In this document: positions 5,494 through 38,430 of the stretch, piece by piece
Layout: every line of letters begins with the position of its first letter
How positions within the stretch are numbered: position 1 is the first letter of the stretch
Source: a virus
DNA: 64,000 nucleotides
Virus record (IMG/VR): IMGVR_UViG_3300002448_000161
Reading direction: 5' to 3' (one strand)
Notes under the pieces: generated by a model
The model's database searches: none
What the model was told of the DNA's origin: nothing
What the model saw: the letters and a program-made list of their open reading frames with translations, nothing else
Position numbers and translations under genes: made by a program

Positions 5494-6921
5494 TCAGCCC
5501 TGGCTTCGGTAGACTTCTTCCTGGAAAAGGCTGGGGTGCAGGCTGGCCAGTTTGTCCGTTGCCTCTTTTATCGGACGCCTGATTGAAGCGTGGGCTTTCT
5601 CCGATGTCCTCAGTCGCAGCAGGTGGTAGCACTCGCGCAGGTTTACCGTGGTGATCATCCGCTGGATGTGCGTGTGGGTTACCAGGTAGGCGGCCGCTGG
5701 CGGGCAGTATTCGGCGATTTTCTGGTGCGCCCTCGCGGCCTGTTCCAGCGCCTCGTCGAACTCGTCGGCTGCGCCGGCTTCCTCTATCAGGTCCGGCATG
5801 GTCCGTCCCAGCGAGATGGTGGGCTGCTGGGGCAGCAGTGATTGGATCCGGTGGCGCCGGAACTCCCGCAGGGCTCCGTAGTCCATGGCCAGCTCCAGTG
5901 TGAAGTGGATCTGTTCCAGCTCCCTGGGCCCCGGGTCGTGGGGCCCCATCCTCTTCAGGTAGCTTGCGATCAGCTCTGCTCTTTCCTCTTCTCCGAGCGC
6001 CTGGGCGGTGTTCCTCGCCTGCTGGTAGCTTGTGTTATGTCGGTGGAAAAGGTAGGCGGCGGCGAGCCTTTCCTCGGCGTCCCGGTCGTCCTGTATTACC
6101 CGGGCCGCCGGCCCCTTATTTTTGTTTCGCGCCGATGCTCCGATGGTCATCTGCACCGGTCGGTTCAAGTCCTTCTGCAGGTAGTCGGAGGCTTCGGCGT
6201 ACTTAACCAGCGAGGGGCAGATTTTGAGCGCTTCCTGCTTTAGTTTCTGTCCCAGCTCTCTCTCCTCGTCGAGGGGCGCTGACAGCAGCTTGCTGATGGC
6301 GTGTTCCATCGTCCTGGCGTTGGCGGTTAGGCCTACGTTTGTTGTTGTGGCCGCAGGCAGCAGGCCTCTGCTGGAGTCCATGGCTATACGTTCCAGGCGG
6401 CTGGTGAAAGCCCTTTCGGTCTCGCCAGCATTTTTGTCTGTGGTGGTTTTCAGGTGCGTTACGCACTGGGCGGTTATGGTCTCGTAGCTTTGCATCAGCT
6501 GGTTTGCCGCCTCCTTGAAGGCGGCGATTAGCTGCGGTTTCCCGGCCAGCTCGGCCGGTGTATGAAAGTTTCCTGGGATGATGGCCTGGTATCTGGAGGA
6601 TTTTTCGGTGTAGGAGCCGAGCCGGTTATCCTCCAGCCGGTCCACGGCGAGCCTGGAGAAGTTTTCCACCGCGATGTGGAGGACTGCGTGTTCTGCCACT
6701 GACGCGTGGCCGTACCCCAGCACCCACTTTTCGTTGAACTCCTCTGCCCTGGTTGCGGTCACCTGTCTGGCGATGGCGTCGAAGGCTTCCGGGTTGCGGG
6801 AGGTCATTGCAAAGGTTACGGCTATTTCTTCTTCGGTGGTCTCCCTGTGGTTCAGCGCGTAGACCCGGGTTACCGGGTTGTCAATTTCCGGCAGCCGGCT
6901 TTGTGTCATTGGTTTCTCCAT
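5494..6921 (-). CDS. thyX: FAD-dependent thymidylate synthase, tandem-domain type
   Basis: First domain has GHASVAEH and RLGSYTEKSSRY. Second domain has EFRRHR and NLRECYHLLRLR. Confidence 0.85.
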   Translation of the reverse strand: MEKPMTQSRLPEIDNPVTRVYALNHRETTEEEIAVTFAMTSRNPEAFDAIARQVTATRAEEFNEKWVLGYGHASVAEHAVLHIAVENFSRLAVDRLEDNRLGSYTEKSSRYQAIIPGNFHTPAELAGKPQLIAAFKEAANQLMQSYETITAQCVTHLKTTTDKNAGETERAFTSRLERIAMDSSRGLLPAATTTNVGLTANARTMEHAISKLLSAPLDEERELGQKLKQEALKICPSLVKYAEASDYLQKDLNRPVQMTIGASARNKNKGPAARVIQDDRDAEERLAAAYLFHRHNTSYQQARNTAQALGEEERAELIASYLKRMGPHDPGPRELEQIHFTLELAMDYGALREFRRHRIQSLLPQQPTISLGRTMPDLIEEAGAADEFDEALEQAARAHQKIAEYCPPAAAYLVTHTHIQRMITTVNLRECYHLLRLRTSEKAHASIRRPIKEATDKLASLHPSLFQEEVYRSQG

Positions 6922-7955: not shown

Positions 7956-10900
7956 TCAGCACTTGCTCCAGCCGCAGTAGTTGTCGACGCAGGAGAGGCA
8001 GCCCTCCTTGTAAATCACCTTGCCGTTGCAGTCGGGGCATTTGTTCTGCACTTCGTTCTCTACCGTGGTGAACATGGCTTCCAGCCCCATCTGGATGGCC
8101 TCCGGCGCCTTGACCTCTACCTGGTTGGTGGCCTGGTTTATCAAGGCCCGGGCCACCGCGTCGGGCGCCGACCGGATCTGGATGCCGTTGTCCCACGCGG
8201 GGCAGCAGGTTATTCCCAGCAGGTTGCTTATGATCTCGGTCTCGCATACGCCGGCCCGCAGGGCCATGGAGGCCAGCCGGCAGATGGCCTCCAGCTGCGC
8301 CGAGTCGCATCCACCGGCCTTTCCCAGGTTGGCAAATACCTCGAAGGGCTTGCCCTTCTCGTCGTCGTTGATGGTGATGTACATGGAGCCGTGACCGGTG
8401 TGGAAGCGTTCCGTTTTTCCCGACGTTATGCGGGGACGGTTCCGCGCGTAGAGCACAACGTTGTCTTCGTCAACGTCGGACTCGGCGGTGCCGGTGGCCC
8501 CGGTGCTCAGGACCTGGTTCTCCTTGCTGCCGTCCCGGTAGACCGTAATCCCCTTGCAGCCGGTCTCGTAGGCCCGCAGGTAGGCTTCCATTACGTCCTC
8601 GCGGGTGGCTTCGTTGGGGAAGTTGATCGTTTTTGACACCGAGTTGTCGGTGTATTTCTGGAAGGCGGCCTGCATCCTTACGTGCCAGTCGGGCGATATG
8701 TCGTGGGAGGTCCTGAATATCTCCTTGGCCCAGTCCGGGGCTTCCAGTTCCTGCAGCGTTCCCTTCTGGCTCAGCTGTTCCATCAGCTCGGCGCTGTAGA
8801 AGCCGTGGTGCCTGGCGACGGCCTCAAAGTAGGAATAGCCTTCGTACAGCTTGGTGTTGTCCATGACGTTTCGGACGTAGGATAGCGCGAACAGGGGTTC
8901 AATGCCGCTGGAGGCGTCGGCGATTATGCTGATGGTCCCCGTTGGCGCGATGGTTACCGGCGCCGAGTTGCGCATCTGGCGGGGGTTATCCCCGCTGTTG
9001 TAGAGGGAGTGGTCCCATTCCGGGAAGGTGCCGCGTTCGCTGGCCAGCTCGTGGCTGGCCTCGTGGGTCATGCGCTGGATGGCGCTCATCACGTCCTCGG
9101 CTATCTGCAGTCCCTCCTCGGAGTCGTAACGGATTCCGAGCTGCACCAGAAGGTCGGAGAATCCCATGATACCGACCCCGATGCGCCGGGTGCGGCGGGT
9201 CATATCCTCGATCTCCTTCAGCGGGTAGTTGTTCATGTCGATGACGTTGTCGAGCATTCTGACCGCTATGCGGGTGGTCTCCTCCAGTTTTTCGTAGTCG
9301 ATCTCGGCTCCTGTTTCCGTGTAGCGGACCATCCTGGCCAGGTTGATGGAGCCCAGGTTGCAGGACTCGTAGGGCGCCAACGGCTGTTCTCCGCAGTTGT
9401 GCAGCACGAACCCGTTGCCGTCGAAGGCGTTCGCGCCGGGTATCTGGACGTCGTATACCTCCTGCGTTCCTGCTTCCACTATTGCTGTTACTGTGGTGAA
9501 CCTGGGGGCGTGGAAGGCCGTTGGGGATAGCCCGTCGGCTATTTCCACCGCTTTGACGGCGCACTCGTTGTAAGCCTCTTCGTTCCAACGGGACACCTGG
9601 TGTAGCCAGGCCTCCAGTTCTGTGCTTCTGGACGTCCTGATCAGGATTTCCTTCGTCGCTACGTGATTGGCGTTGGTTCTGTCCAGCAGGACCGTTGCGG
9701 CCTGGGCTGGCAGTCTCTGGTCCCAGGAGGTCTCTTCGCTGCTGTTGTGTTCGTTGACTGCTAGAACGGCGTGGGAGAGCAGGTCTTCCAGTCGGTTGCC
9801 CCAGAACGGGGCTCTGTCTCTGGCCTGTTCCACTGCTGCTTGGCCGATGGCCCTTGGATCTTCCTGGTGTGCCAGCTCGTGGTTGTTCAGCTCGAGCTTG
9901 TCTCCGGGCCGTATTTCTCCGGCCGGTATCCATTCGGTGTGCCCGTTGCTGATTCTGCGTACCAGGTGGTCCCTGGTCAACGTGATTGCCGGTGTTCCTG
10001 GGTTCGGCGTTCCGACGATTTGTATGACTTCTTTGGCGCCGGTGGCGAAGAAGCCGTTGGGTCCCGACGGGTAGGGGGCGCCGTGGAGCAGCGCGTCAAA
10101 GTGGACGTCGACCAGCTCTCTGACCGGAATGGGTCCCTCGGTTGTCATAACCAGCGTGTCTCCGGTGACGCAGGGGTTGGTGCTTTCGATCCTGCCGATC
10201 TGGGGGTTGGGGTTGTCCCGGTTTATCCGGTCCAGGAAGACCAGCCCCGGGTCGCCGGTGGCCCACGCGTTGTCCACTATCAGGTCGAAAATTTCCCGGG
10301 CGTTCGCTTTTCCGGTGACCTCGCGGGTCGCCGGATTGATCAGGTCGTAGTCTTCGCCGGCCAGTGCGGCCGCTATGAAGTCCTCGCTTACGCCCACGGA
10401 GATATTGAAGTTCTGCAGGAACTCGCCGGTATTCTTGGCCTCTATGAATTCTCGGATGTCCGGGTGGGATATGTCCAGGATTCCCATATTGGCTCCGCGG
10501 CGGGTCCCGCCCTGCTTCACCACCTCGGTTGCGGTGTCGAATACCCGTATGAAGCTCACGGGCCCTGAGGCTACGCCGCCGGTGGTTCCCACCCGGTCTC
10601 CGGCTGGGCGGATTCTGGAGAAGGAGAAGCCGGTGCCGCCGCCTGACTTGTGGATGATGGCGGTGTCCTTGGCGCTCGTGAATATCGACTCAATAGAGTC
10701 GTTCACGGGCAACACGAAGCATGCTGAGAGCTGCTGGAGCTCGCGGCCGGCGTTCATGAGCGTCGGCGAATTGGGCAGGAAGTCGTGGCGGCTCATCACG
10801 TCGAAGAACTGGCCTTTCACGGCCCGTCGGTCCTCCTCGCTGGCGTTGTAGAACAGCTCGGCCTGGGCCAGGTTGTCGGCCACCCTTTCGTACATGTGGT

Positions 10901-11069
10901 TGGGCTGTTCGATGGCCTCGCCTTGGTTGTTTTTCCTGAGGTACCTGCGCTTGAGCACCACTACGGAGTTTTCCGAGGTATGGGCCTGGCCCATGTTTAT
11001 CCGCTGGGCTATGCCGGCGGCCGTCATCGCGTCGGCTATTCGTTTCCGGTTCGTTATGGTGTCGTTCAT
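7956..11069 (-). CDS. nrdJ: Class II (B12-dependent) ribonucleotide reductase with intein, TSCPD and Zn-ribbon C-terminus
   Basis: Motifs FLPNSPTLMNAG, QLSACFV, NP[intein]CGEQPL, ESCNLGSINL, IAPTGTIS and GCKGITVYRDGS. C-terminal CPDC...CLSCV..CGWSKC. Confidence 0.95.
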   Translation of the reverse strand: MNDTITNRKRIADAMTAAGIAQRINMGQAHTSENSVVVLKRRYLRKNNQGEAIEQPNHMYERVADNLAQAELFYNASEEDRRAVKGQFFDVMSRHDFLPNSPTLMNAGRELQQLSACFVLPVNDSIESIFTSAKDTAIIHKSGGGTGFSFSRIRPAGDRVGTTGGVASGPVSFIRVFDTATEVVKQGGTRRGANMGILDISHPDIREFIEAKNTGEFLQNFNISVGVSEDFIAAALAGEDYDLINPATREVTGKANAREIFDLIVDNAWATGDPGLVFLDRINRDNPNPQIGRIESTNPCVTGDTLVMTTEGPIPVRELVDVHFDALLHGAPYPSGPNGFFATGAKEVIQIVGTPNPGTPAITLTRDHLVRRISNGHTEWIPAGEIRPGDKLELNNHELAHQEDPRAIGQAAVEQARDRAPFWGNRLEDLLSHAVLAVNEHNSSEETSWDQRLPAQAATVLLDRTNANHVATKEILIRTSRSTELEAWLHQVSRWNEEAYNECAVKAVEIADGLSPTAFHAPRFTTVTAIVEAGTQEVYDVQIPGANAFDGNGFVLHNCGEQPLAPYESCNLGSINLARMVRYTETGAEIDYEKLEETTRIAVRMLDNVIDMNNYPLKEIEDMTRRTRRIGVGIMGFSDLLVQLGIRYDSEEGLQIAEDVMSAIQRMTHEASHELASERGTFPEWDHSLYNSGDNPRQMRNSAPVTIAPTGTISIIADASSGIEPLFALSYVRNVMDNTKLYEGYSYFEAVARHHGFYSAELMEQLSQKGTLQELEAPDWAKEIFRTSHDISPDWHVRMQAAFQKYTDNSVSKTINFPNEATREDVMEAYLRAYETGCKGITVYRDGSKENQVLSTGATGTAESDVDEDNVVLYARNRPRITSGKTERFHTGHGSMYITINDDEKGKPFEVFANLGKAGGCDSAQLEAICRLASMALRAGVCETEIISNLLGITCCPAWDNGIQIRSAPDAVARALINQATNQVEVKAPEAIQMGLEAMFTTVENEVQNKCPDCNGKVIYKEGCLSCVDNYCGWSKC
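9396..10172 (-). mobile_element. Intein (259 aa) in the NrdJ active-site motif
   Basis: Starts CVTGDTLV, has block B ITLTRDHLV, and ends VYDVQI...NGFVLHN followed by extein Cys. It splits NP|CGEQ. Confidence 0.93.
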
Positions 11070-29901: not shown

Positions 29902-29932
29902 CGGCCCGGGACTTCACCCGGGCCGTTTCTTT
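29902..29932 (+). terminator. Intrinsic terminator after the pilin pair
   Basis: CGGCCCGGG-acttca-CCCGGGCCG followed by TTTCTTT. Confidence 0.8.
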
Positions 29933-32553
29933 CAGTCGATGCGGACCCGCTCGTATCGGTTGTCCGCTGGCATCCATAGTTGCCAGTCAGCCGGTCTTAT
30001 CGGCTGCAGCGCGTCCTCGCCCACGGGTTCAAGCTCTATCTGCCCTTCCTTATTCCTCAGTATGTACTTAATCCCTTCCTGCCAGATCGGCTCCTCGGTG
30101 GTCCCCTCGTCGAGGGCTTTCTTTCTTGGGCTGTAGTATCTTATCCTCGTGCCAGGCTGGAGTACCCGCCACCAGCTGGTCTGTTCGTCCTGGCTCGTTG
30201 GAGCCTGTTGTTGCCTCTCGTCGAGCCATTGCAGGAAGAGCCGAGCGGTCTTCCTTTCTATGCGCTCCAGCTTTGTTTTCTCGTCGGTCGCAGACCTGAG
30301 CAGGCTGTCGGCGTAATCCCTCAGGTTTTCGAACAGGTGGTTCGTTAGCCCGAGCCCGCCGATCACATCGTCGTAAACGACTAGGGAGTTTTCGCTCAGC
30401 ATGCAGCCTTTGGCGCTTTTCAGGAAGATGTTGTCGGCCACGAAGTCGATGTCGCCGCTGGCTATGCTTCTGCGGTAGCACAGATGGCTCTTGAGCGTCT
30501 TGGCGAGCTGTACCCGGTTGGCCCAACCCTGGCTGTCGTTACCCTGAAACCACTCGCTGTCAATGGTGATGTGCAGTCCGGTCGTCCCGTAGGTCCGTTG
30601 TTTGCGGCTCTTGCCCGGGTCTATGCGGGACAGGTTTTCGTACAGGACCGGAGGGTCTCCCGTTTTAACGAATCCTTCCACCGATTGGATAATGTTCATG
30701 GCGGTTCTCTGGTAGAACCCCCTTTCTTTCTCCTTCAGGTCCTGGCTGTTTCTGGTCTGGTCCAGGTCAATAACGGCGAGCTGCCGTTCCAGGCTATGTG
30801 TTCTCTCTCGGACCGAAGGGATTTGCTGCATCTTTATGCGCCCCTCTTTGCTGCTGCGGTTTCGGGCCCATTCCTGAACCTCGTAGCACTTCCCGTAATG
30901 TCGGTAGATGGCGCCGGGGTAAGCCTCGTTCATGGCGTAGGGAAGGCTTATCGTTCCCACTTTCCGCTGTTCCGGCTGGCTCTGTCCGTGCCCTTGGTCT
31001 ACAGCCATCAGCTGCAGTTCTTCTTCTCCTGTACTTCTCATGGTGTGATTGAGCTGCGGCGGTCCGCTGGCCGGGGGCCTTATTGAATTGAGCCTTGGCG
31101 TTCGGCTGTGGGCTTCCCTCATCAGTTGCTGGAATCCATCCGGCCAGCGGCAGTTTTCCGGTGGAATCATGGCGTTGGCGCCCCTCGTTTCCAGTTCCTG
31201 TTTCAGGCACCTGGCCTGGTGGTATCCGATGTGTTCGTTGTTAATGTACAGGTTGGTCGCCTCGACGCTTTCGCGAATGTAATCCTCCATTGAGTCGCCG
31301 TAGGCTTCGAACTGGCTGCTGGGAGCGACTATTATGAACGTCCCCGGGCTGGTCCTGCCGATTCGGCCCAATCTCTGATGCAGCTGCTTGCGCGTCGTTG
31401 GGAGTCCCACGTTAAGGCCGTAGCTCAGGTCCGGCATGTCAATGCCCATTTCGAGGGCGGAGGTGCTTACCACGCCCCTTATGGCCCCTCGGCGGAGCTG
31501 GTCTTCGATGTCCTTTCTCTCGCTTCCCAGGTAGCCTGAACGGTACGGGACTATGTCGTCGGGTCTTCCGGCATACTGCACAATTCTTTCTACGCCTTGG
31601 CGTGAGTCATGGAAAGTGATGATTTGGGCGCTTGGGTCCGCGTTGATGATTGCGTTCATCAACCTGGCGGTGGTTTGTTCCAGGACGTGGCTGCCTCCGT
31701 CGGCGGGAACGTGGTGGATTTCCCTCGCCTGGCGCGGGGCGCCGCACATCTCCTGTGCAACGCTTTCGAAGTCCTGGCCGGTCAGGTTTTTCATGTGCTG
31801 CGCCGGTTCTAGTATTGTGGCCGTGGCAGCTATAAACTGGACATTCTTCCTGTGGGTCTCGGCCATTGCGGCGCTGATTAGCCTTCGGAACATGTACGCC
31901 GCGTTGGATCCGAACACTGAGTCGTAGGTGTGTGCTTCGTCAATGATTACCAGCTTCAGTTTTGCCAGGAATCTGGCCTGGGCTGACTGTCCCTGGGTTC
32001 GCAGCAGCCATGCGTGGCACACGTCCGGTGTCATCGCTACCACCTTTGCCCGGTCCAGGATGGCCGTCCGGTGCTGCATCTGGGTATCGCCGTCTATGCG
32101 GCCTATGGCGTTTCCGGGCAAACCGGCTGCCTGCGCGGCCTCCCTCCATTTTTCAGCCTGGTCATTCCCCAGCGCCTTGATCGGGTAGAGTACCAGCGCT
32201 GTTGCGTCCGTTTCCGTTGTTACCTGCATGGCATGGCTTTGGAAGATCAGCGTCTTTCCTGACGCCGTCGCCGTTGAGACTACCAGGTTGGCGCCGGTGC
32301 CCAGGATTTCCAGCGAGAGCGCCTGGTGGCTCCATATCTTTCCTTGGGCGTCAACCCTGTGGATCAGGGTTCCTGCGGCCCCATGCTGGTATTTATCGGG
32401 CGCGGCGCTCCGCTTTTCGGGCTCGGCCGGTACGGTCAGCGATTCCAGCGCCGCGCAGCCGATGCACAGGCTGAGACTCCCGTTAGGGTCCGTTCTGGCG
32501 GCTGTGGCCGGCTGGTGACACCTTGAACATTTTAGTCCTGTCGAGCTGGTCAT
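29932..32553 (-). CDS. DEAH-box SF2 helicase, MrfA/YprA/Hrq1-like
   Basis: TATASGKT, YPIKALGNDQ, DEAHTY, STSALEMGID, QRLGRIGR, and the DUF1998-like YDDVIGGLG. N-terminal CxxC..CxxC. Confidence 0.85.
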   Translation of the reverse strand: MTSSTGLKCSRCHQPATAARTDPNGSLSLCIGCAALESLTVPAEPEKRSAAPDKYQHGAAGTLIHRVDAQGKIWSHQALSLEILGTGANLVVSTATASGKTLIFQSHAMQVTTETDATALVLYPIKALGNDQAEKWREAAQAAGLPGNAIGRIDGDTQMQHRTAILDRAKVVAMTPDVCHAWLLRTQGQSAQARFLAKLKLVIIDEAHTYDSVFGSNAAYMFRRLISAAMAETHRKNVQFIAATATILEPAQHMKNLTGQDFESVAQEMCGAPRQAREIHHVPADGGSHVLEQTTARLMNAIINADPSAQIITFHDSRQGVERIVQYAGRPDDIVPYRSGYLGSERKDIEDQLRRGAIRGVVSTSALEMGIDMPDLSYGLNVGLPTTRKQLHQRLGRIGRTSPGTFIIVAPSSQFEAYGDSMEDYIRESVEATNLYINNEHIGYHQARCLKQELETRGANAMIPPENCRWPDGFQQLMREAHSRTPRLNSIRPPASGPPQLNHTMRSTGEEELQLMAVDQGHGQSQPEQRKVGTISLPYAMNEAYPGAIYRHYGKCYEVQEWARNRSSKEGRIKMQQIPSVRERTHSLERQLAVIDLDQTRNSQDLKEKERGFYQRTAMNIIQSVEGFVKTGDPPVLYENLSRIDPGKSRKQRTYGTTGLHITIDSEWFQGNDSQGWANRVQLAKTLKSHLCYRRSIASGDIDFVADNIFLKSAKGCMLSENSLVVYDDVIGGLGLTNHLFENLRDYADSLLRSATDEKTKLERIERKTARLFLQWLDERQQQAPTSQDEQTSWWRVLQPGTRIRYYSPRKKALDEGTTEEPIWQEGIKYILRNKEGQIELEPVGEDALQPIRPADWQLWMPADNRYERVRID

Positions 32554-32596
32554 CGGCGATATCCCCTTTGGTCTGTCGGTTTGCTCCTCTGGTTGA

Positions 32597-33061
32597 TCAA
32601 CGTCGTTGGACTGGAGGTTCCAGGAGAATTATCGTGCATTGTTCCAACCCGCTTAATCTGGTTTCTATCTCTGCGCGGACCGCGTTCCAGGGCAGTCCGC
32701 CGAGCCCGCAGCCCAGTGGCGGGATGGCAATTGATGCTATTGCCCTCTTGGTCAGCTCTTCGGCCAGGGTGTCCAGTCCTTCCTGGATGTATTCCAGTCT
32801 GCTGGGACGGCGGTAGTCGTTCTTGGTTGGGAAGTTAACTATCCACTCCGGGGTCTCCCGGCCGGTGTTGAACCAGTTGAGGCGCCCTGGCTTGATCAGC
32901 CCCTGGGCGCATTCCCTGCGGTATTGCGCCGTGTTGGCCGGGTAGCGGCGGCTGAATTGCTTCGCCAGTCCTGCTCCCATCGGTCCCAGGCAATTGGTGG
33001 GATTCACGATGGCCTGAGCCTCGGACTCGAAGATGTTCCCGGTGTGGTAGGCCAGCATCAC
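32597..33061 (-). CDS. Macrodomain ADP-ribose glycohydrolase (DarG/TARG-like)
   Basis: GNIF, IVNPTNC.G.MGAGLA.QF, NFPTK and SIAIPPLGCGLGGL.W. Confidence 0.9.
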   Translation of the reverse strand: MMLAYHTGNIFESEAQAIVNPTNCLGPMGAGLAKQFSRRYPANTAQYRRECAQGLIKPGRLNWFNTGRETPEWIVNFPTKNDYRRPSRLEYIQEGLDTLAEELTKRAIASIAIPPLGCGLGGLPWNAVRAEIETRLSGLEQCTIILLEPPVQRR

Positions 33062-33067
33062 CGCCTC

Positions 33068-33571
33068 CTAAAGCAGTTTGGGTCCTGACTGGGTTGTCGC
33101 CGTGTTCTTGGGCCGCGGCGCTGGCGGCGGCTTCTTGGTCGTGGTTGTAGCGGCCAGTGTACCCGCTGGCGGAGACGGCTTGGTCTTTGATTTCTTCGCG
33201 TCGTACTTGTTCAGCTGAGGCTGCTTGTCCCACTGGTCCTTCGCCTTGCGCACCAACCCGGCGATGGGCTCGCCCAGCGCTTCGATCTCACTTTCTTCCA
33301 ACGTGTAGAAGACCGGGTAGGTCTCCTTGCCCTGTATTCCCACCGTGATCTTCTCGTCAAGCCGTATCACGATCTTCAGCTCCGGTTTGTCCGGCTGGGG
33401 GGTCTCTGATGCGGTAGCTTCTCCTTTTGGTTCCGCCTTTTCCCCTGGCGCTGTGCTGCCCTCTTCGCCTTCTTCCGCGTTCTCGTCGTCTTCGGTAAGT
33501 TCTACGGGTTCGGTTTCGTCCTCTTCTTCGGACAGGTCTATGATCCTGGTTTCGTCATTTTCCTGCGTCAT
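33068..33571 (-). CDS. Acidic/Lys-Pro-rich hypothetical protein in the PRTRC cassette (possibly protein E-like)
   Basis: Acidic N-terminus, small central domain and basic low-complexity tail. Adjacent to E1. Confidence 0.5.
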   Translation of the reverse strand: MTQENDETRIIDLSEEEDETEPVELTEDDENAEEGEEGSTAPGEKAEPKGEATASETPQPDKPELKIVIRLDEKITVGIQGKETYPVFYTLEESEIEALGEPIAGLVRKAKDQWDKQPQLNKYDAKKSKTKPSPPAGTLAATTTTKKPPPAPRPKNTATTQSGPKLL

Positions 33572-33590
33572 GCCGTTGCGGTTCCTTCTT

Positions 33591-34385
33591 TCAGGATATT
33601 ACTTTCTTGATGTTTTCCGGCGTTGCTGCGATTGTCGTGAGATTACCGAACTCCAGGTTCAGGTATTGGGCCATGTGGTTGCACCGGCCGGTCACCAACC
33701 GGTAGACCGTGTTGTTGGCCAGCGTGGCCATAGCGTCGTTAATGGCCGGGTCCTGTTCCTGCAGCATCACTGCCATGGCGCAGTCCCGGTCGGGGTTGTA
33801 TTCTTCGACCGCGTCGATCAGCAGCCCTGGCTGCTGGGTTCCTGGCGTTGGCAGCTTTTGGATCAGGTTAATTCCTTCCACCTCGCGGTAATAGTCCGTG
33901 ACGGGCTTTTTGCTATCCGCCGTGGCGTTCCCGATCAGCAGCTGCCCGGTGTTTTCGCTGTTCCCGACATCGATGTACCAGCCGTGGCCTCTCGGTAGTC
34001 CCGACCGGTCCGGCTTGTATAGCTCATCGAGCGTTCTTCTGGCCTTGGCGTTGTCGACGCAGCCTATGATTAACTCCGCTCGGTTGAGGTTGTGCGCTGA
34101 AGCCTTTTCGGGGATGGCCGTTACCTTTCTTCGGAAGTTCCTGGCCAGCCTCTCGGCCAGCGTCAGGGCTTTATTTTTGCCCAGGTCCTTCTCGTAGAAG
34201 CCTTGACGGAGCAGGTTGTGTGGTTCCACCTCGTCGTGGTCGATCAGGATCAGGTCCACGGTTGTTCCGGTGAGCAGTCTCATCAGCTTTTCGGCGAGCA
34301 GGCTTCCTGTGCCGCCGCAGCCGACTATTGCGACTTTGTGGACCTTTGGGCAGCTGACTTTGCTTTCTAACGATGCCATTTTCAT
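33591..34385 (-). CDS. E1 / ThiF-family adenylase (PRTRC ThiF)
   Basis: VGCGGTG, DHDEVEPHNLLRQ and IGCVDN, with a candidate catalytic Cys in DRDCA. Confidence 0.9.
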   Translation of the reverse strand: MKMASLESKVSCPKVHKVAIVGCGGTGSLLAEKLMRLLTGTTVDLILIDHDEVEPHNLLRQGFYEKDLGKNKALTLAERLARNFRRKVTAIPEKASAHNLNRAELIIGCVDNAKARRTLDELYKPDRSGLPRGHGWYIDVGNSENTGQLLIGNATADSKKPVTDYYREVEGINLIQKLPTPGTQQPGLLIDAVEEYNPDRDCAMAVMLQEQDPAINDAMATLANNTVYRLVTGRCNHMAQYLNLEFGNLTTIAATPENIKKVIS

Positions 34386-34999
34386 TCCTCGGCTATTTCA
34401 GTCAGTTTAATTCTTCGGAATACCCCGTAGATCCCCAGGCGGAGCTGGAACGCGTTGTGCGTTCCCGCTGCGGTCTTGCGGGTACCCGCGACGCCGTAGA
34501 TCCTGAATCCCTGCTCGTCGGCGTTGTCGGTGCTCGAGAAGAACGGCTGTGACCTTCCGTGGGAGTGCAGTTCCAGCACAGCATTTTGCTGTTTGTCGTA
34601 TTCCAGCGCGGTCGCCGTGCCACTTTGGCCCGGTCTGGCGGCTTTGTATGTCCCGGTCTCAGGATCCCATGTGATGCTGAACAGCCGTTCGGTGTCCAGG
34701 TCTTCCATGGTCCACAGGATTTGCTCTCTGATGGCTTTGGCCGGCAGCTTCCCGTTGGGCAGCGTTATACTTTCCTGCTCTTCATCGAGGCCTCTGATGG
34801 CCACGTCTGAGGGGGCTACCAGAGTCGTTGCCTCCAGTGATTCGCTGCTTGCAGTGATGAAGATCCCGTTGGCCGCGGTGATGTATGTGTAGGCCCGTCC
34901 TCTTGCACCTGAGTAACCGTTGCGGTTCTTGAAGACGTAGCCGGCGGGCAGGTCTGCCAGCTCCAGCTCACCTATTGTAGGTTTCGTTGAAGGTCCCAT
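34382..34999 (-). CDS. JAB/MPN metallopeptidase (PRTRC protein A-like)
   Basis: ELHSHG...FFSSTDNADE (HxH..S..D). Confidence 0.9.
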   Translation of the reverse strand: MGPSTKPTIGELELADLPAGYVFKNRNGYSGARGRAYTYITAANGIFITASSESLEATTLVAPSDVAIRGLDEEQESITLPNGKLPAKAIREQILWTMEDLDTERLFSITWDPETGTYKAARPGQSGTATALEYDKQQNAVLELHSHGRSQPFFSSTDNADEQGFRIYGVAGTRKTAAGTHNAFQLRLGIYGVFRRIKLTEIAEE

Positions 35000-35639
35000 G
35001 GTATCTCAAGGACTCCTTGGGGAATTTTCGTTTGCCGTCGATGTCGCGCCACAGGCTGAGTATGCTGTCCTGGTGGCTGGCGAGCATGCCGGTGCCCTGG
35101 TGGGGACTGAACCGGCTCTCGAAGAAGGACGCCGGGATTTTGTCCGGCTGGGACGGGAATATGTGGTTTCCCGGGCACGATGTGCCGTTCTCGAAGCAGT
35201 TCAGCAGTGGGGCTTTATAGACGGCTTCGTCGCCTGTTTTCGGCCTGGCCAGGGCCGCGAAGATTACCGGCGGCCGGTTCGCTGAGCAGGTGAACAGCAG
35301 CCCCGGCAGGGGAATCTTTAATTGCTCGGGCTTGGTCGCGGCGCCGGTGACCAGTGTTACCGGCCAGGTCCTGGGCGGAACCCAGATCGTGAATTCCGGG
35401 CCGGCCTTGGTGTTCCGGTAGTGGACGGTTCCCTCTGGCAGCAGTGGCGTGCTGCTCTGCAGGTTTCTCTGAATCACGCGCAACAGGGCGTCTCCGTCCA
35501 CGTGCGTTAGGGTGATACCATTGTCCAGGTACCTGGTCAGCACCAGGCCGCTCTCGTAGCAGTCCAGCCGGTGGGTTAGCTTTCCTTCGTCGGTCTGGAA
35601 GTCCAGCTTGTCGGGGTCGAATTCCAGTCCTGCTATCAC
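34968..35639 (-). CDS. Prokaryotic E2-like protein (PRTRC protein B-like)
   Basis: IPLPGLLF and YKAPLLNCFENG.SC.G, the conserved Cys motif of prokaryotic E2 family D. Confidence 0.8.
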   Translation of the reverse strand: MIAGLEFDPDKLDFQTDEGKLTHRLDCYESGLVLTRYLDNGITLTHVDGDALLRVIQRNLQSSTPLLPEGTVHYRNTKAGPEFTIWVPPRTWPVTLVTGAATKPEQLKIPLPGLLFTCSANRPPVIFAALARPKTGDEAVYKAPLLNCFENGTSCPGNHIFPSQPDKIPASFFESRFSPHQGTGMLASHQDSILSLWRDIDGKRKFPKESLRYHGTFNETYNR

Positions 35640-36478
35640 GTTTGCATCTCCTCGGGTGGTCCCTCCTGCTTTTCTCGGTAGTCTATGAGAAGTTTCAGAA
35701 TTCGGGCCATCTGCTTCTCAAGAACGGGTTCCCACGTTAAGCCCGCGTTGTGGGCCCGTCTCTGCAGCCGTTCTCCCTCTTTCCATTCCGCCGTGAGGCG
35801 CTGGACGTTTTCCCACGTCCACGGTCCGTTGTCGGCTAGTTCGAACCGGTTTTCAGTGTTCTTTCGGACGAATATGTTGTCGGGTATTGCCATGGCGTAC
35901 TCGACAACCTCGGTGAATCGCTGGAATCTGGTTCCCGTAAGGGCCCCTCTGATTTCCTGAAGCTTGAAGGGTTTTTGGGGTATATCCTCGATTATCTCTC
36001 CGAGGTTGTCTCCCATTTCGAGCTCCTCGCTGTGCATGGCGCGCAGGGTACCTGCGTAGCTTTCTTCTATGATCTCGCCTGCGAACTCGGTGACGTCGCC
36101 CAGGATGTACGCGTAGGAGAAGATGCTGTGCTGCCCCTGTGTCGTGTACATGGCGTGTTCGGGATGGACTCCCATTGGAGCTATCCGTATGTGTTCGAAG
36201 TATTCCATCGTGAACTCGTTGTCTTCGTCGGTACCGTCCTCCATTGACTCGTCGAGGATGGTTCCCAGCTCCAGCGGAAAGAATCGCCGGTAGAACCCGG
36301 CCGCCAGCGTATACATGGCGCCCTGGTTCCGTATGCTGCCTTCCAGGCCCGGGAGGAACTCCCGTATCAGGCGGGTAACCCGGTTATTTACCTTGGTGGC
36401 GCTTAGCGCCTCGGCCAGGTGGTCGATTCGAATTAACATGGGTTCAAGCTTTTGGCACAGGTCCTGGAGCTTCAGCAT
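35636..36478 (-). CDS. Hypothetical protein in the PRTRC protein F position
   Basis: Lies between Ubl and E2 with overlapping stop/start codons, at a similar size. Positional inference only. Confidence 0.55.
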   Translation of the reverse strand: MLKLQDLCQKLEPMLIRIDHLAEALSATKVNNRVTRLIREFLPGLEGSIRNQGAMYTLAAGFYRRFFPLELGTILDESMEDGTDEDNEFTMEYFEHIRIAPMGVHPEHAMYTTQGQHSIFSYAYILGDVTEFAGEIIEESYAGTLRAMHSEELEMGDNLGEIIEDIPQKPFKLQEIRGALTGTRFQRFTEVVEYAMAIPDNIFVRKNTENRFELADNGPWTWENVQRLTAEWKEGERLQRRAHNAGLTWEPVLEKQMARILKLLIDYREKQEGPPEEMQT

Positions 36479-36481
36479 TTG

Positions 36482-36877
36482 CTAACCTATGGTGTCGTTG
36501 ATCATGGAGGCGACGTGCTGAGCCGATTTCAGCAGCGCGTCCGCTTCTGCGCTTGCCTCGGCAAGCCGTCCCTGGTCCAGGGCGTCGTAGACGTCTTCTC
36601 CCGAGACGTCAATCTCGGCCAACATCTTCAGGATCTTTGGACGGCAGGGCTTCAACTCATCGAGCGTTGCGGCAATGACTTCGGTCCCGTTCAGGCCCTT
36701 TGTTCCCACCTTTACGGTGAATTCGTAGACGGTTTCCAGCCCTTGGCTCTTCTCGGCGACGGTTGCGTTGGCCAGTTCGGGCATGAATTCGGCTAGGTGG
36801 CTCTTGACCTCCTCAACGCTCATGTTGGGGTCCGGGTCCGGGTACTCTGTTCCGTTGTAAAGAAAGACTCTGTTCAT
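36482..36877 (-). CDS. Ubiquitin-like protein (PRTRC protein C-like) with C-terminal extension
   Basis: RVFLYNG..YPDPDP.MS.EEV......PEL.NAT...YEF..KVGTKG, followed by 70 more residues. Confidence 0.85.
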   Translation of the reverse strand: MNRVFLYNGTEYPDPDPNMSVEEVKSHLAEFMPELANATVAEKSQGLETVYEFTVKVGTKGLNGTEVIAATLDELKPCRPKILKMLAEIDVSGEDVYDALDQGRLAEASAEADALLKSAQHVASMINDTIG

Positions 36878-36978
36878 GCCTCTCTCCTTTGATGTGCAAG
36901 TGCCCGGGCCTTCACTGTAGGTCCGGGCATTGATTGTTCTTTTCGTAGTCCGCTGTTCTGTCCTGCGGCGGCGCTGAT

Positions 36979-38370
36979 TTAGCCTTCGGCGCTGCCGGCG
37001 GCCATTTGTTCCTTCTCCGCTTCCTCGAAGTCTTCACTGTTGGTGGGTTCGGAGAATGGGTCCTCCGGATTGGCGTTGCTCCTTTCGAATTCGTTCTCCT
37101 CGTCCGGTTCGACACTTGCGGCTGGCTCCGGGGACTCGTTAGTGTCTTCCACCTGGATGACGTCGTCGTCTTCGCCGGCCGTTGGCTGGCTTGGCGCAGG
37201 ACCGTTTGCGGTTACCATAATTGGTCCCTCGTCCGGCCAGCTCGTGAACATGGGCATGATGACCCTGTGGTAATGTTCACTTCCCGGTATTCCTATGACG
37301 ACCGGCGTGTCCGTGCGGTCTATTCGGATTTCCACGTCGTCGCCGGCGACGTCTCCTATTTCCAGCATGTAGTCGCCGTTCAGGGCAACCTTGGCGTTGT
37401 CGCCCTCGTATTCCTTCACCCGGAAGGTGATCGAGGTCTCGCCTATCTGGTCTGAGCGGCCGGTCAACTGACCTACACCCGGGTCGGCCAGGCCTTCGGT
37501 CTTCTGCGTTCTCATTCGGATAATTTTGCTGTCGTCCTTGGCAAACAGGGCGGCGGTCTTCGCGGCCCGGTTGAAGTCCTTGGTGGCCACCACCATTCGG
37601 GCGCTGTAGGTTGTAGGTATCAGCTTTTCGGTGTTGGGAAAGGCTTGGTCAATGAGCTGGGTGAAGATCTTCAATCTTCCGATCATGAAGAGCGCCTGGT
37701 GCCGTTCGGGAACCATCAGGAAGCGCACCGGTTCGGTGGCGCCCTGGGCGTTCCGGATTATCTCGTGGATGGTGTTGGCTTTGATGATCACGTCCAGGTC
37801 TTCGGCCGGAGGTTCCAGCAGGTCGCCCTGGTCCACTGCCAGCTGGAACCCGTCGGCGGCTGCCACCTTGAAGGCGGGGCCGCTGGTCCTGATGTTGACT
37901 CCGGTCAGTGCCGGTCGGCTTTCTTCCTTGGCGGTGGCGCCTACGACCCGGTTGAGTGCTCTGCCGAATTCCTCGGCCTCTACGCTGCCGGCGATTCCCT
38001 CGTTGACCGTGGGCCGCGGGGGATAGTCCTCGGGGTTGGCTCCGTGGATCGTGGCGGTGTGGCCGCCGGCAGTGAAGATGGTGTATGCCTTTTCCTCTGG
38101 CGAGTCCAGGTTGATCGTCTCCTCTGCTATGGTTCCAATGTATTCGGCGAACAGCCGGTTGGGCAGGGTCACGCTGCCCTCCCGGTCGATGACCGCTGGA
38201 ATTCTTGTCATGATCGTGGTTTCCAGGTTGGTGCCGGTGAGGAGTATCTGGTTGTCCTGGGCCTCCAGCAATATGTTGTCGCAGATTGGCAGCGTGTTGC
38301 GGTTGTTTATGGCGCGCCGGACCGTGGCGACTCCCTGGCGCAGGTTGTCTTTGGAGCAGGTAAGCTTCAT
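36979..38370 (-). CDS. dnaN: DNA polymerase III beta sliding clamp with acidic tail
   Basis: MKLTCSK..L, LPICDNILL, TGTNLE, SRPALTGV, AAADGFQL, FPNTEKLIP and VIMPM. Confidence 0.93.
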   Translation of the reverse strand: MKLTCSKDNLRQGVATVRRAINNRNTLPICDNILLEAQDNQILLTGTNLETTIMTRIPAVIDREGSVTLPNRLFAEYIGTIAEETINLDSPEEKAYTIFTAGGHTATIHGANPEDYPPRPTVNEGIAGSVEAEEFGRALNRVVGATAKEESRPALTGVNIRTSGPAFKVAAADGFQLAVDQGDLLEPPAEDLDVIIKANTIHEIIRNAQGATEPVRFLMVPERHQALFMIGRLKIFTQLIDQAFPNTEKLIPTTYSARMVVATKDFNRAAKTAALFAKDDSKIIRMRTQKTEGLADPGVGQLTGRSDQIGETSITFRVKEYEGDNAKVALNGDYMLEIGDVAGDDVEIRIDRTDTPVVIGIPGSEHYHRVIMPMFTSWPDEGPIMVTANGPAPSQPTAGEDDDVIQVEDTNESPEPAASVEPDEENEFERSNANPEDPFSEPTNSEDFEEAEKEQMAAGSAEG

Positions 38371-38401: not shown

Positions 38402-38430
38402 AAAAAACGGGCGCCTGTTCAGCGCCCGTT
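38402..38430 (-). terminator. Intrinsic terminator-like hairpin about 30 nt upstream of dnaN
   Basis: Minus strand AACGGGCGC-tgaacag-GCGCCCGTT followed by a U-tract. Confidence 0.7.

Follow-up and report, generated by a model that had tools for sequence, protein, structure and literature searches.

A probable ParB-less member of the 6d/PRTRC class of ubiquitin-like conjugation cassettes, with a candidate clamp-docking protein, on a Dehalococcoidia conjugative element

The virus record IMGVR_UViG_3300002448_000161 supplies the 64,000-nt stretch of DNA analysed here, which is referred to as the window. Directly downstream of a gene for a beta sliding clamp (dnaN), it carries a cassette of genes for a ubiquitin-like protein (Ubl) and the enzymes of its conjugation. 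The carrier of this cassette is a conjugative element of a sponge-associated Dehalococcoidia bacterium, and the cassette is located in the DNA-establishment and replication block of that element. Judged from domains and gene order, it appears to be a divergent, ParB-less member of the 6d/PRTRC class of bacterial ubiquitin-like conjugation cassettes. All of the cassette genes are intact and possess their catalytic residues, and hundreds of diverged copies retain the complete unit. In the lineage of the window it consists of seven genes, namely those for Ubl, Y, X, E2, JAB, E1 and a protein that is here termed the tail protein after its putative docking peptide at the C-terminus. The preferred reading, held tentatively and at just short of an even chance, is that the tail protein brings the cassette to clamp-loaded DNA of the element, where it would act in the replication and establishment module.

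Anatomy of the cassette

Nine intact minus-strand genes occupy positions 29932-38370 in the co-oriented order given by the first-pass annotation: dnaN, Ubl, X, E2, JAB, E1, an acidic protein, a macrodomain and a helicase. The residues that it had listed as intact, i.e., the E2 Cys, the JAB HxH..D motif and the E1 adenylation motifs, were found at the expected places in alignments with relatives. Its description of the parts needed three corrections, since the extension of the Ubl is a fused small gene, X represents a large family, and the acidic protein (the tail protein) is a conserved member of the cassette. The features of the locus are as follows, with the cassette given first and its neighbours after it.

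36695..36877, minus strand: ubiquitin-like domain, residues 1-61, ending V-G-T-K-G (Prok_Ub, PRTRC_C; Gly61 codon 36695-36697)
36482..36694, minus strand: Y part of the Ubl frame, a 70-residue helical extension matching a separate gene of ~75 residues in relatives
35636..36478, minus strand: X, 280 residues, mostly helical, in the PRTRC_F position; its stop overlaps the E2 start
34968..35639, minus strand: E2-like carrier, Prok-E2_D (Cys155 codon 35175-35177, His159 codon 35163-35165)
34382..34999, minus strand: JAB/JAMM metalloprotease, Prok-JAB, with an N-terminal JAB-N domain
33591..34385, minus strand: E1-like adenylating enzyme of the ThiF family, 264 residues, single adenylation domain
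33068..33571, minus strand: tail protein (the acidic protein), 167 residues, conserved seventh cassette gene
36979..38370, minus strand: DnaN beta sliding clamp, 463 residues, three clamp domains (1-374), TIGR00663
36899..36931, minus strand: hairpin in the 101-nt gap between dnaN and Ubl, from fold analysis
38406..38430, minus strand: terminator-like hairpin with a T-run after it, shortly upstream of dnaN, probably ending the preceding unit
32597..33061, minus strand: stand-alone DarG-like macrodomain (DarG model, 190 bits, N-terminal half only)
29932..32553, minus strand: DEAD/DEAH-box helicase, 873 residues, from a family scan

Relatives were surveyed by a scan of species-representative genomes, which yielded 306 related stretches; counts given below over 80 loci refer to the best 80 of these 306, nearly all of which come from Dehalococcoidia and Chloroflexota metagenome-assembled genomes. 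For gene-order counts, 113 locus records were pooled, with some loci entered twice, and Ubl, E2, JAB and E1 occur together in 103 of them.

Each of the four core proteins is recognizable by its domain. The Ubl reading frame (36482-36877, minus strand) encodes 131 residues in total, and residues 1-61 match both Prok_Ub (PF14454, 50.2 bits) and PRTRC_C (49.3 bits; cut-off 45.95). The E2 scores 50.3 bits with PF14460 (cut-off 25), and its Cys155 is invariant, and His159 nearly so, in 10-12 aligned homologues. JAB matches PF14464 at 27.8 bits (cut-off 25) and possesses the active-site motif E143, H145-x-H147, S155 and D158, while its JAB-N domain has an invariant R69 and a W96 that is conserved in nine of ten sequences. 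The E1 contains G22-C-G-G-T-G27, R60 and D111, together with invariant Cys202 and Cys235.

The V-G-T-K-G end of the Ubl is conserved in 26 relatives, in which a further 0-12 residues follow (two of the proteins stop exactly there), as compared to 70 more in the window. In most relatives, Y is a separate helical gene of ~75 residues situated between Ubl and X, and the 70-residue extension is an in-frame fusion of this small neighbouring gene. The correspondence was judged by eye from position, length and a shared residue pattern; a tblastn search with the extension alone gave no significant match. Y is also fused in frame to Ubl in L072 and L073, two metagenome contigs from other samples that are syntenic with the window, and the Ubl-Y protein of L072 (L072:2271-2669) is 132 residues long and 67% identical. 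Because these contigs are independent, the arrangement is a gene fusion and not an assembly error. In the cassette of pANACY.02, a plasmid of Anabaena cylindrica, a 144-residue open reading frame (ORF) lies at the position equivalent to Ubl-Y.

X belongs to a family of 705 representative clusters (exhaustive profile search, E <= 0.001) that has no Pfam model, and in the sampled contexts it always lies between Prok_Ub and Prok-E2_D. Indeed, X, Y and the tail protein had zero NCBIfam or Pfam matches. The structural model of X is mostly helical, with a predicted local distance difference test (pLDDT) score of 66. Its fold had no match in the PDB at E <= 0.001, and a comparison with the AlphaFold DB returned uncharacterised proteins, one label of "Knr4/Smi1-like" and an insignificant row for PRTRC_F. 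A word-index search with X retrieved X alone. Between the window and L072, identity is 48% for X, 47% for the tail protein, 60% for JAB, 60% for E1, 74% for E2 and 74% for dnaN, and X is the fastest-evolving enzyme or partner of the cassette. A 674-residue X-TnpB protein with a Cas12f/TnpB-type domain (L070:10001-12025, in a 349-kb circular metagenome contig) was considered as a real domain fusion and is read as most likely an insertion sequence (IS) insertion.

Class membership and other lineages

The operon type referred to as 6d was described by Iyer, Burroughs and Aravind in 2006 (Genome Biol 7:R60, PMC1779556). The cassette of the window resembles that description in its small Ubl ending in Gly, its E2 with a conserved Cys and downstream His, its JAB with a JAB-N domain, its short ThiF-type E1 and its rapidly diverging helical protein, the last of which, between Ubl and E2, is X (PMC1779556). 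Moreover, both are carried on mobile elements, and four Pfam models exceed their gathering thresholds in the window. Three features of the window are absent from the 2006 description: a seventh conserved gene with a clamp-binding-like C-terminus, which is a feature of the window's lineage; the small gene Y fused to Ubl; and an adjacent, element-encoded dnaN.

PRTRC (ParB-related, ThiF-related cassette) is the name under which NCBIfam groups a corresponding set of models (TIGR03734-03742), and the first-pass annotation had equated the cassette with it. The match stands as a family resemblance, in gene order and in 6d-type Pfam domains, and fails as strict membership, given that A, B and ThiF score below their cut-offs and that a ParB is lacking. 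The scores were 54.8 bits for PRTRC_B (cut-off 131.45), 51.5 for PRTRC_A (101.8) and 135.3 for PRTRC_ThiF (144.75), such that PRTRC_C alone exceeds its cut-off in the window; relatives score likewise. In PRTRC loci of Methylomonas and Burkholderia plasmids, the order is ParB, E, C, small ORF, F, B, A, ThiF. The homologous portion of this order, which the window shares, runs from C (Ubl) through an optional small ORF and the protein at the F position to B (E2), A (JAB) and ThiF. In contrast, the window has its tail protein downstream of E1, where PRTRC loci have PRTRC_E upstream of C. X, Y and the tail protein gave no match to the PRTRC D, E and F models (TIGR03739, TIGR03741, TIGR03742), even with E allowed up to 5, and X corresponds to PRTRC_F in position alone. 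As an observation on one of the PRTRC plasmids, a 72-residue ORF between C and F in Burkholderia vietnamiensis (L156:6582-6800) ends D-L-P-L-I-F, a hydrophobic end reminiscent of clamp-binding motifs.

The absence of a ParB-like gene from the window, as initially reported, was borne out: ParB_N (PF02195) had no match there or in the whole genome bin to which the window belongs. Among 60 related genomes, a ParB was never adjacent to the cassette, the nearest lying ~20 kb away. More generally, ParB_N (PF02195, E <= 0.001) was found in 18 of the 61 genomes of the order, with the bin included in the 61, and therefore a canonical chromosomal ParB may be missing from many of these Dehalococcoidia. 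Of the same 61 genomes, 21 encode Prok-E2_D, often within single-contig chromosomes.

Cassettes with a comparable gene content are also found in a different phylum, on plasmids of the Nostocales. These plasmids share with the window a Prok-E2_D, JAB and ThiF cassette on a conjugative plasmid, located 1-7 kb from a plasmid dnaN. In pANACY.02, dnaN, dnaX and a polymerase gene lie 1-5 kb downstream of the cassette, an ORF of ~144 residues occupies the expected Ubl place, and an acidic 155-residue protein encoded beside the cassette ends QLTLF. In Nostoc plasmid pCC7120beta, the E2-JAB-ThiF genes lie 6.5 kb from dnaN, dnaX and holA. The Nostocales plasmids differ from the window in that they encode dnaX, holA and a polymerase, and in that the acidic protein is upstream of Ubl.

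Other operon types of the 2006 work have since been characterised, with 6b corresponding to CBASS Cap2/3, 6c to type II Bil and 6e to Bub. This leaves 6d/PRTRC as the last large bacterial E1-E2-Ubl-JAB operon family without an experiment or a proposed target.

The tail protein, the sliding clamp and possible roles

In 103 of 103 records, the core domain of the tail protein is encoded downstream of E1 and in the same orientation; in 95 of them the distance is no more than 1.5 kb. The protein comprises an acidic N-terminal region, a domain of ~55 residues with a beta-beta-beta-alpha arrangement, a basic, Pro-rich disordered linker and a C-terminal peptide; GC-rich forms carry an extra N-terminal DUF2958 domain. 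The beta-beta-beta-alpha domain was modelled confidently, with the variable linker behind it predicted to be disordered, and a fold search with the domain returned uncharacterised proteins alone.

An L-x-L-F end is present in 81 of 102 tail proteins and in 67 of 84 distinct tails, with the consensus Q-[PQ]-[EQ]-T-L-R-L-F-stop, as compared to a background of 4 in 8287 long reading frames of this genome (0.05%). Variants include Q-S-L-T-L-F, M-A-R-L-F, T-L-S-M-F-D-D-L-E-S and T-M-S-M-F-D-E. Proteins that bind the bacterial clamp follow the C-terminal consensus QL(S/D)LF (PMC9690074), and the tail of the host's DinB reads Q-Q-L-V-L-P-L-F plus six residues. The consensus of the tail proteins resembles both, and it is thus a putative docking peptide for the clamp.

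With regard to the clamp itself, the DnaN of the window matches PF00712, PF02767 and PF02768 and scores 215.4 bits with TIGR00663 (cut-off 137.65). It is 35-39% identical to chromosomal clamps of Dehalococcoidia, and a second, chromosomal dnaN is present on contig C16 of the bin. The DnaN columns G174, L177, P245 and M372-P373 are invariant, and presumably map to the peptide cleft of the E. coli clamp. When alignments of DnaN (residues 1-380) and of the tail protein (residues 60-167) were submitted to complex prediction, the score was 0.18; this is below the mark and speaks neither for nor against binding. As a side observation, the ~90 C-terminal residues of DnaN (residues ~381-463, 36979-37230, minus strand) form an acidic, low-complexity tail that is confined to the lineage of the window and L072, and in the same elements the linker of the tail protein is unusually Lys-rich and basic. 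A charge contact between the two is conceivable.

From what is known of the protein families, the cassette would operate by the following steps. The JAB protease would cut the Ubl-Y precursor after Gly61, freeing both parts; Gly61 would be adenylated by the E1; the Ubl would be handed as a thioester to Cys155 of the E2 and then joined to a lysine of the target; and the attachment would be reversible through JAB. The tail protein, with its clamp-binding-type peptide on a disordered linker, may tether this machinery, or itself as a substrate, to clamps. The docked clamps, loaded on element DNA, would be those of the host or, for this element family, the DnaN that the element itself encodes. Element DNA that is being replicated or has just been transferred would then be the site of tagging, by which its replication, repair or establishment would be regulated. 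On this reading dnaN would lie next door because dnaN and the cassette belong to the same module, and the clamp would not necessarily be the tagged protein. A wider version, in which 6d/PRTRC cassettes in general are clamp-directed, with an adaptor that docks, an E1-E2 pair that tags the clamp or a clamp-bound factor, and a JAB that reverses the tag, so as to control incoming conjugative DNA, is regarded as doubtful. The first-pass suggestion that the clamp or replisome could be the target gains from the tail motif, from the proximity to replisome genes on Nostocales plasmids and from the QLTLF protein; covalent tagging of the clamp is shown by none of these.

Several observations weigh against a role at the clamp. 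Among the best 80 of the 306 loci, dnaN is within 10 kb of the cassette in seven and directly upstream in two. Six of these seven, together with the window, L072 and L073, represent one kind of element with an extreme A/T strand skew. The adjacency is therefore not unique to the window's contig, given that it recurs in L072/L073 and in genomes G025 and G035; it is real and conserved, and it is confined to one element family and not a property of the cassette, which makes it weak evidence by itself. Replication genes cluster on plasmids anyway, and for three of four plasmid dnaN genes sampled (those of Lysinibacillus, B. thuringiensis and C. botulinum) the annotation shows no cassette in the vicinity. 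The tail of the window's own protein, T-Q-S-G-P-K-L-L, is degenerate, being devoid of the first Leu and the final Phe, and those of L072 (QSGPRLI) and L070 (QKPRLL) are equally so; the docking motif is thus weakest exactly where dnaN adjoins. The degenerate tail is nonetheless conserved between the window and L072, whereas the linker is not. The C-terminal motif could also bind a partner other than the clamp. The PRTRC_E proteins point both ways: that of Methylomonas pLM6 ends SKSLFF, which counts in favour of a clamp link, and other PRTRC_E tails (DLVSLLD, FSIGDHF) are not clamp-like. Homology of the tail protein to PRTRC_E, considered as a candidate, was not supported (hhalign probability 0.07%). 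Finally, a literature search found no experimental study of any 6d/PRTRC cassette.

The main rival reading is that the cassette is a generic accessory of mobile elements without any relation to the clamp, which is a serious possibility, if on the unlikely side. Both dnaN and the tail peptide would then be incidental. The cassette would tag or regulate some other protein, of the element or of the host, with a part in partition, transfer or stability, for instance; dnaN would adjoin it because large conjugative elements cluster genes of DNA metabolism; and L-R-L-F would dock a different partner, for example E2, X, JAB, a protease or an SSB-type hub. Besides the restricted dnaN adjacency and the degenerate tail of the window, this explanation draws on the variety of neighbours. 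The genes upstream of the cassette in the remaining 73 of the 80 loci encode an SNF2 helicase, a DUF6094 methylase and RadC, with UDG, HNH, SSB, Fic, LigA or ThyX beside the cassette in further contexts. It is also in keeping with the linkage of canonical PRTRC to ParB rather than dnaN, and with a stretch of E-D-I-P-F in one PRTRC_E tail that is nearer to the tip of SSB than to a clamp motif. It accounts less readily for the fit of the tail consensus to the published clamp motif and to the DinB tail of the host, or for the recurrence, in a distant phylum, of a 6d cassette that has replisome genes in its vicinity and a textbook QLTLF tail next to it. An anti-defence or establishment device, by which host defence or repair proteins would be tagged and neutralised early after transfer (or, in a variant, element proteins protected during conversion of the incoming single strand to duplex), is improbable, even though the cassette is embedded among ArdC, an orphan DUF6094 methylase, an SNF2 helicase, RadC, DUF2958, SSB and a DarG-like macrodomain without DarT, and the fast evolution of X (48%, versus 74% for E2 and dnaN) would fit an arms race. 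No target is known for such a device, a survey of anti-defence genes in leading regions makes no mention of ThiF, JAB or macro genes (PMC11541004), and, since oriT and relaxase were not located, the designation of "leading region" is unproven here. Furthermore, this possibility is compatible with, and not opposed to, action at the clamp.

Resemblance to known defence systems raises the further possibility that the cassette is cargo for anti-phage or anti-plasmid defence of the Bil or CBASS-Cap2 kind, to which little credence is given. The order Ubl-E2-JAB-E1 equals that of BilABCD (PMC10557695), which also features a JAB-trimmed Ubl precursor and an E2 with a Cys and a nearby His, and the E1 adenylation domain matches CBASS E1-E2 models. 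However, the E1 of the window is one adenylation domain of 264 residues, whereas BilD is multidomain, with an inactive and an active adenylation domain plus a Cys domain. Bil acts in defence against phage virions and lacks X, Y and tail proteins. With PADLOC, the Ubl, E2, JAB, X and tail protein had no match and the E1 matched generic CBASS E1-E2 adenylation models only; regulators of the CapW or CapH-CapP type are lacking, and the cassette is found consistently in backbones of conjugative elements, not in defence islands. A sulfur-carrier or cofactor pathway of the ThiS/MoaD-ThiF type is barely credible. It would account for an E1 of the ThiF/MoeB family and for a small beta-grasp Ubl that ends in Gly, but the Ubl is always accompanied by a JAB peptidase and by an E2 whose Cys is invariant, the C-terminal extensions of the Ubl need trimming, and no genes for thiamine or molybdopterin are nearby.

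The closest conceptual likeness to a clamp-directed cassette is found in the ubiquitylation and SUMOylation of PCNA (Rad6-Rad18, Ubc9-Siz1), in which a ubiquitin-like cascade is likewise led to a sliding clamp by a clamp-interaction peptide. The likeness is one of analogy alone, as the targeting factors are not homologous. The tail peptide provides a first concrete and inexpensive test, through which "no known substrate" becomes a short list of bench experiments, and replisome genes beside the cassette recur in two distant phyla. If the preferred reading is correct, protein tagging would be a means by which conjugative elements manage their replication after entry into a new host, and ubiquitin-like control of sliding clamps would not be a eukaryotic or archaeal invention; if the wider version holds, clamp-directed 6d/PRTRC cassettes would be the functional counterpart, in bacteria, of PCNA ubiquitylation and SUMOylation.

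The element, its transcription and its strand composition

The window is the reverse strand of positions 2354-66353 of contig C23, which belongs to a bin (G000) of 58 contigs and 4.39 Mb that is 97% complete. Its DNA is present in sponge metagenomes, and a comparison of the ends of C23 found no terminal overlap. Other genes of the element encode ArdC, a DUF6094 methylase, an SNF2 helicase, a UvrD helicase and a PriCT-2 primase-related protein, as well as a class II-type ribonucleotide reductase and ThyX. The syntenic contig L072 has annotated type IV secretion pilins, and the same block of conjugative-element genes is found in a GC-rich relative. This content of establishment, replication and pilin genes identifies a large conjugative element. 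In L072 and L073, the order from dnaN to UvrD (13 kb) is preserved; the proteins are 47-76% identical, and similarity at the nucleotide level is undetectable.

The first-pass annotation had cautioned that a hairpin between dnaN and Ubl may uncouple their transcription. The hairpin is real and was placed at 36899-36931. In sense RNA it has a stem of 7+3 bp with no U-tract after it and a fold z-score of -1.85, a stability barely above that of shuffled sequence. A ribosome-binding site, AGGAGAGAGG, precedes the Ubl start codon. The hairpin upstream of dnaN (38430-38406) is more terminator-like than that of the gap, and dnaN therefore probably opens the transcription unit.

Beyond the cassette, the macrodomain matches the DarG model in PADLOC and the neighbouring helicase matches helicase models. 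Synteny of these two genes beside the cassette is limited to L072 and L073, and no DarT partner of the macrodomain was recognised in the window. A tandem-domain ThyX is encoded at 5494-6921 (minus strand), and the ribonucleotide reductase, of 1037 residues with a TSCPD domain, at 7956-11069 (minus strand). In L070, ThyX and an NAD-dependent DNA ligase adjoin the cassette.

The element also displays an unusual base composition. The plus strand of the window is 13.5% A and 27.6% T, with G and C nearly equal, independent of gene direction. Every 5-kb bin of C23 (102.5 kb) has an A/T skew of magnitude 0.29-0.42, and plus-strand A drops to ~3-9% at third codon positions, whichever way the genes are oriented. 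Within the bin, the skew is limited to five of the 58 contigs (C23, C28, C56, C34 and C29). In complete chromosomes of relatives (among L050-L069), the same skew marks islands of ~25-45 kb with sharp boundaries, and it is also seen in L070 (22 kb examined) and in L072 and L073. One idea is that selection or mutation acts on the single strand that is transferred and thereby produces the skew. Thymidine in single-stranded DNA is what DarT toxins modify, and the skewed element also carries ThyX, ribonucleotide reductase and the orphan DarG-like macrodomain.

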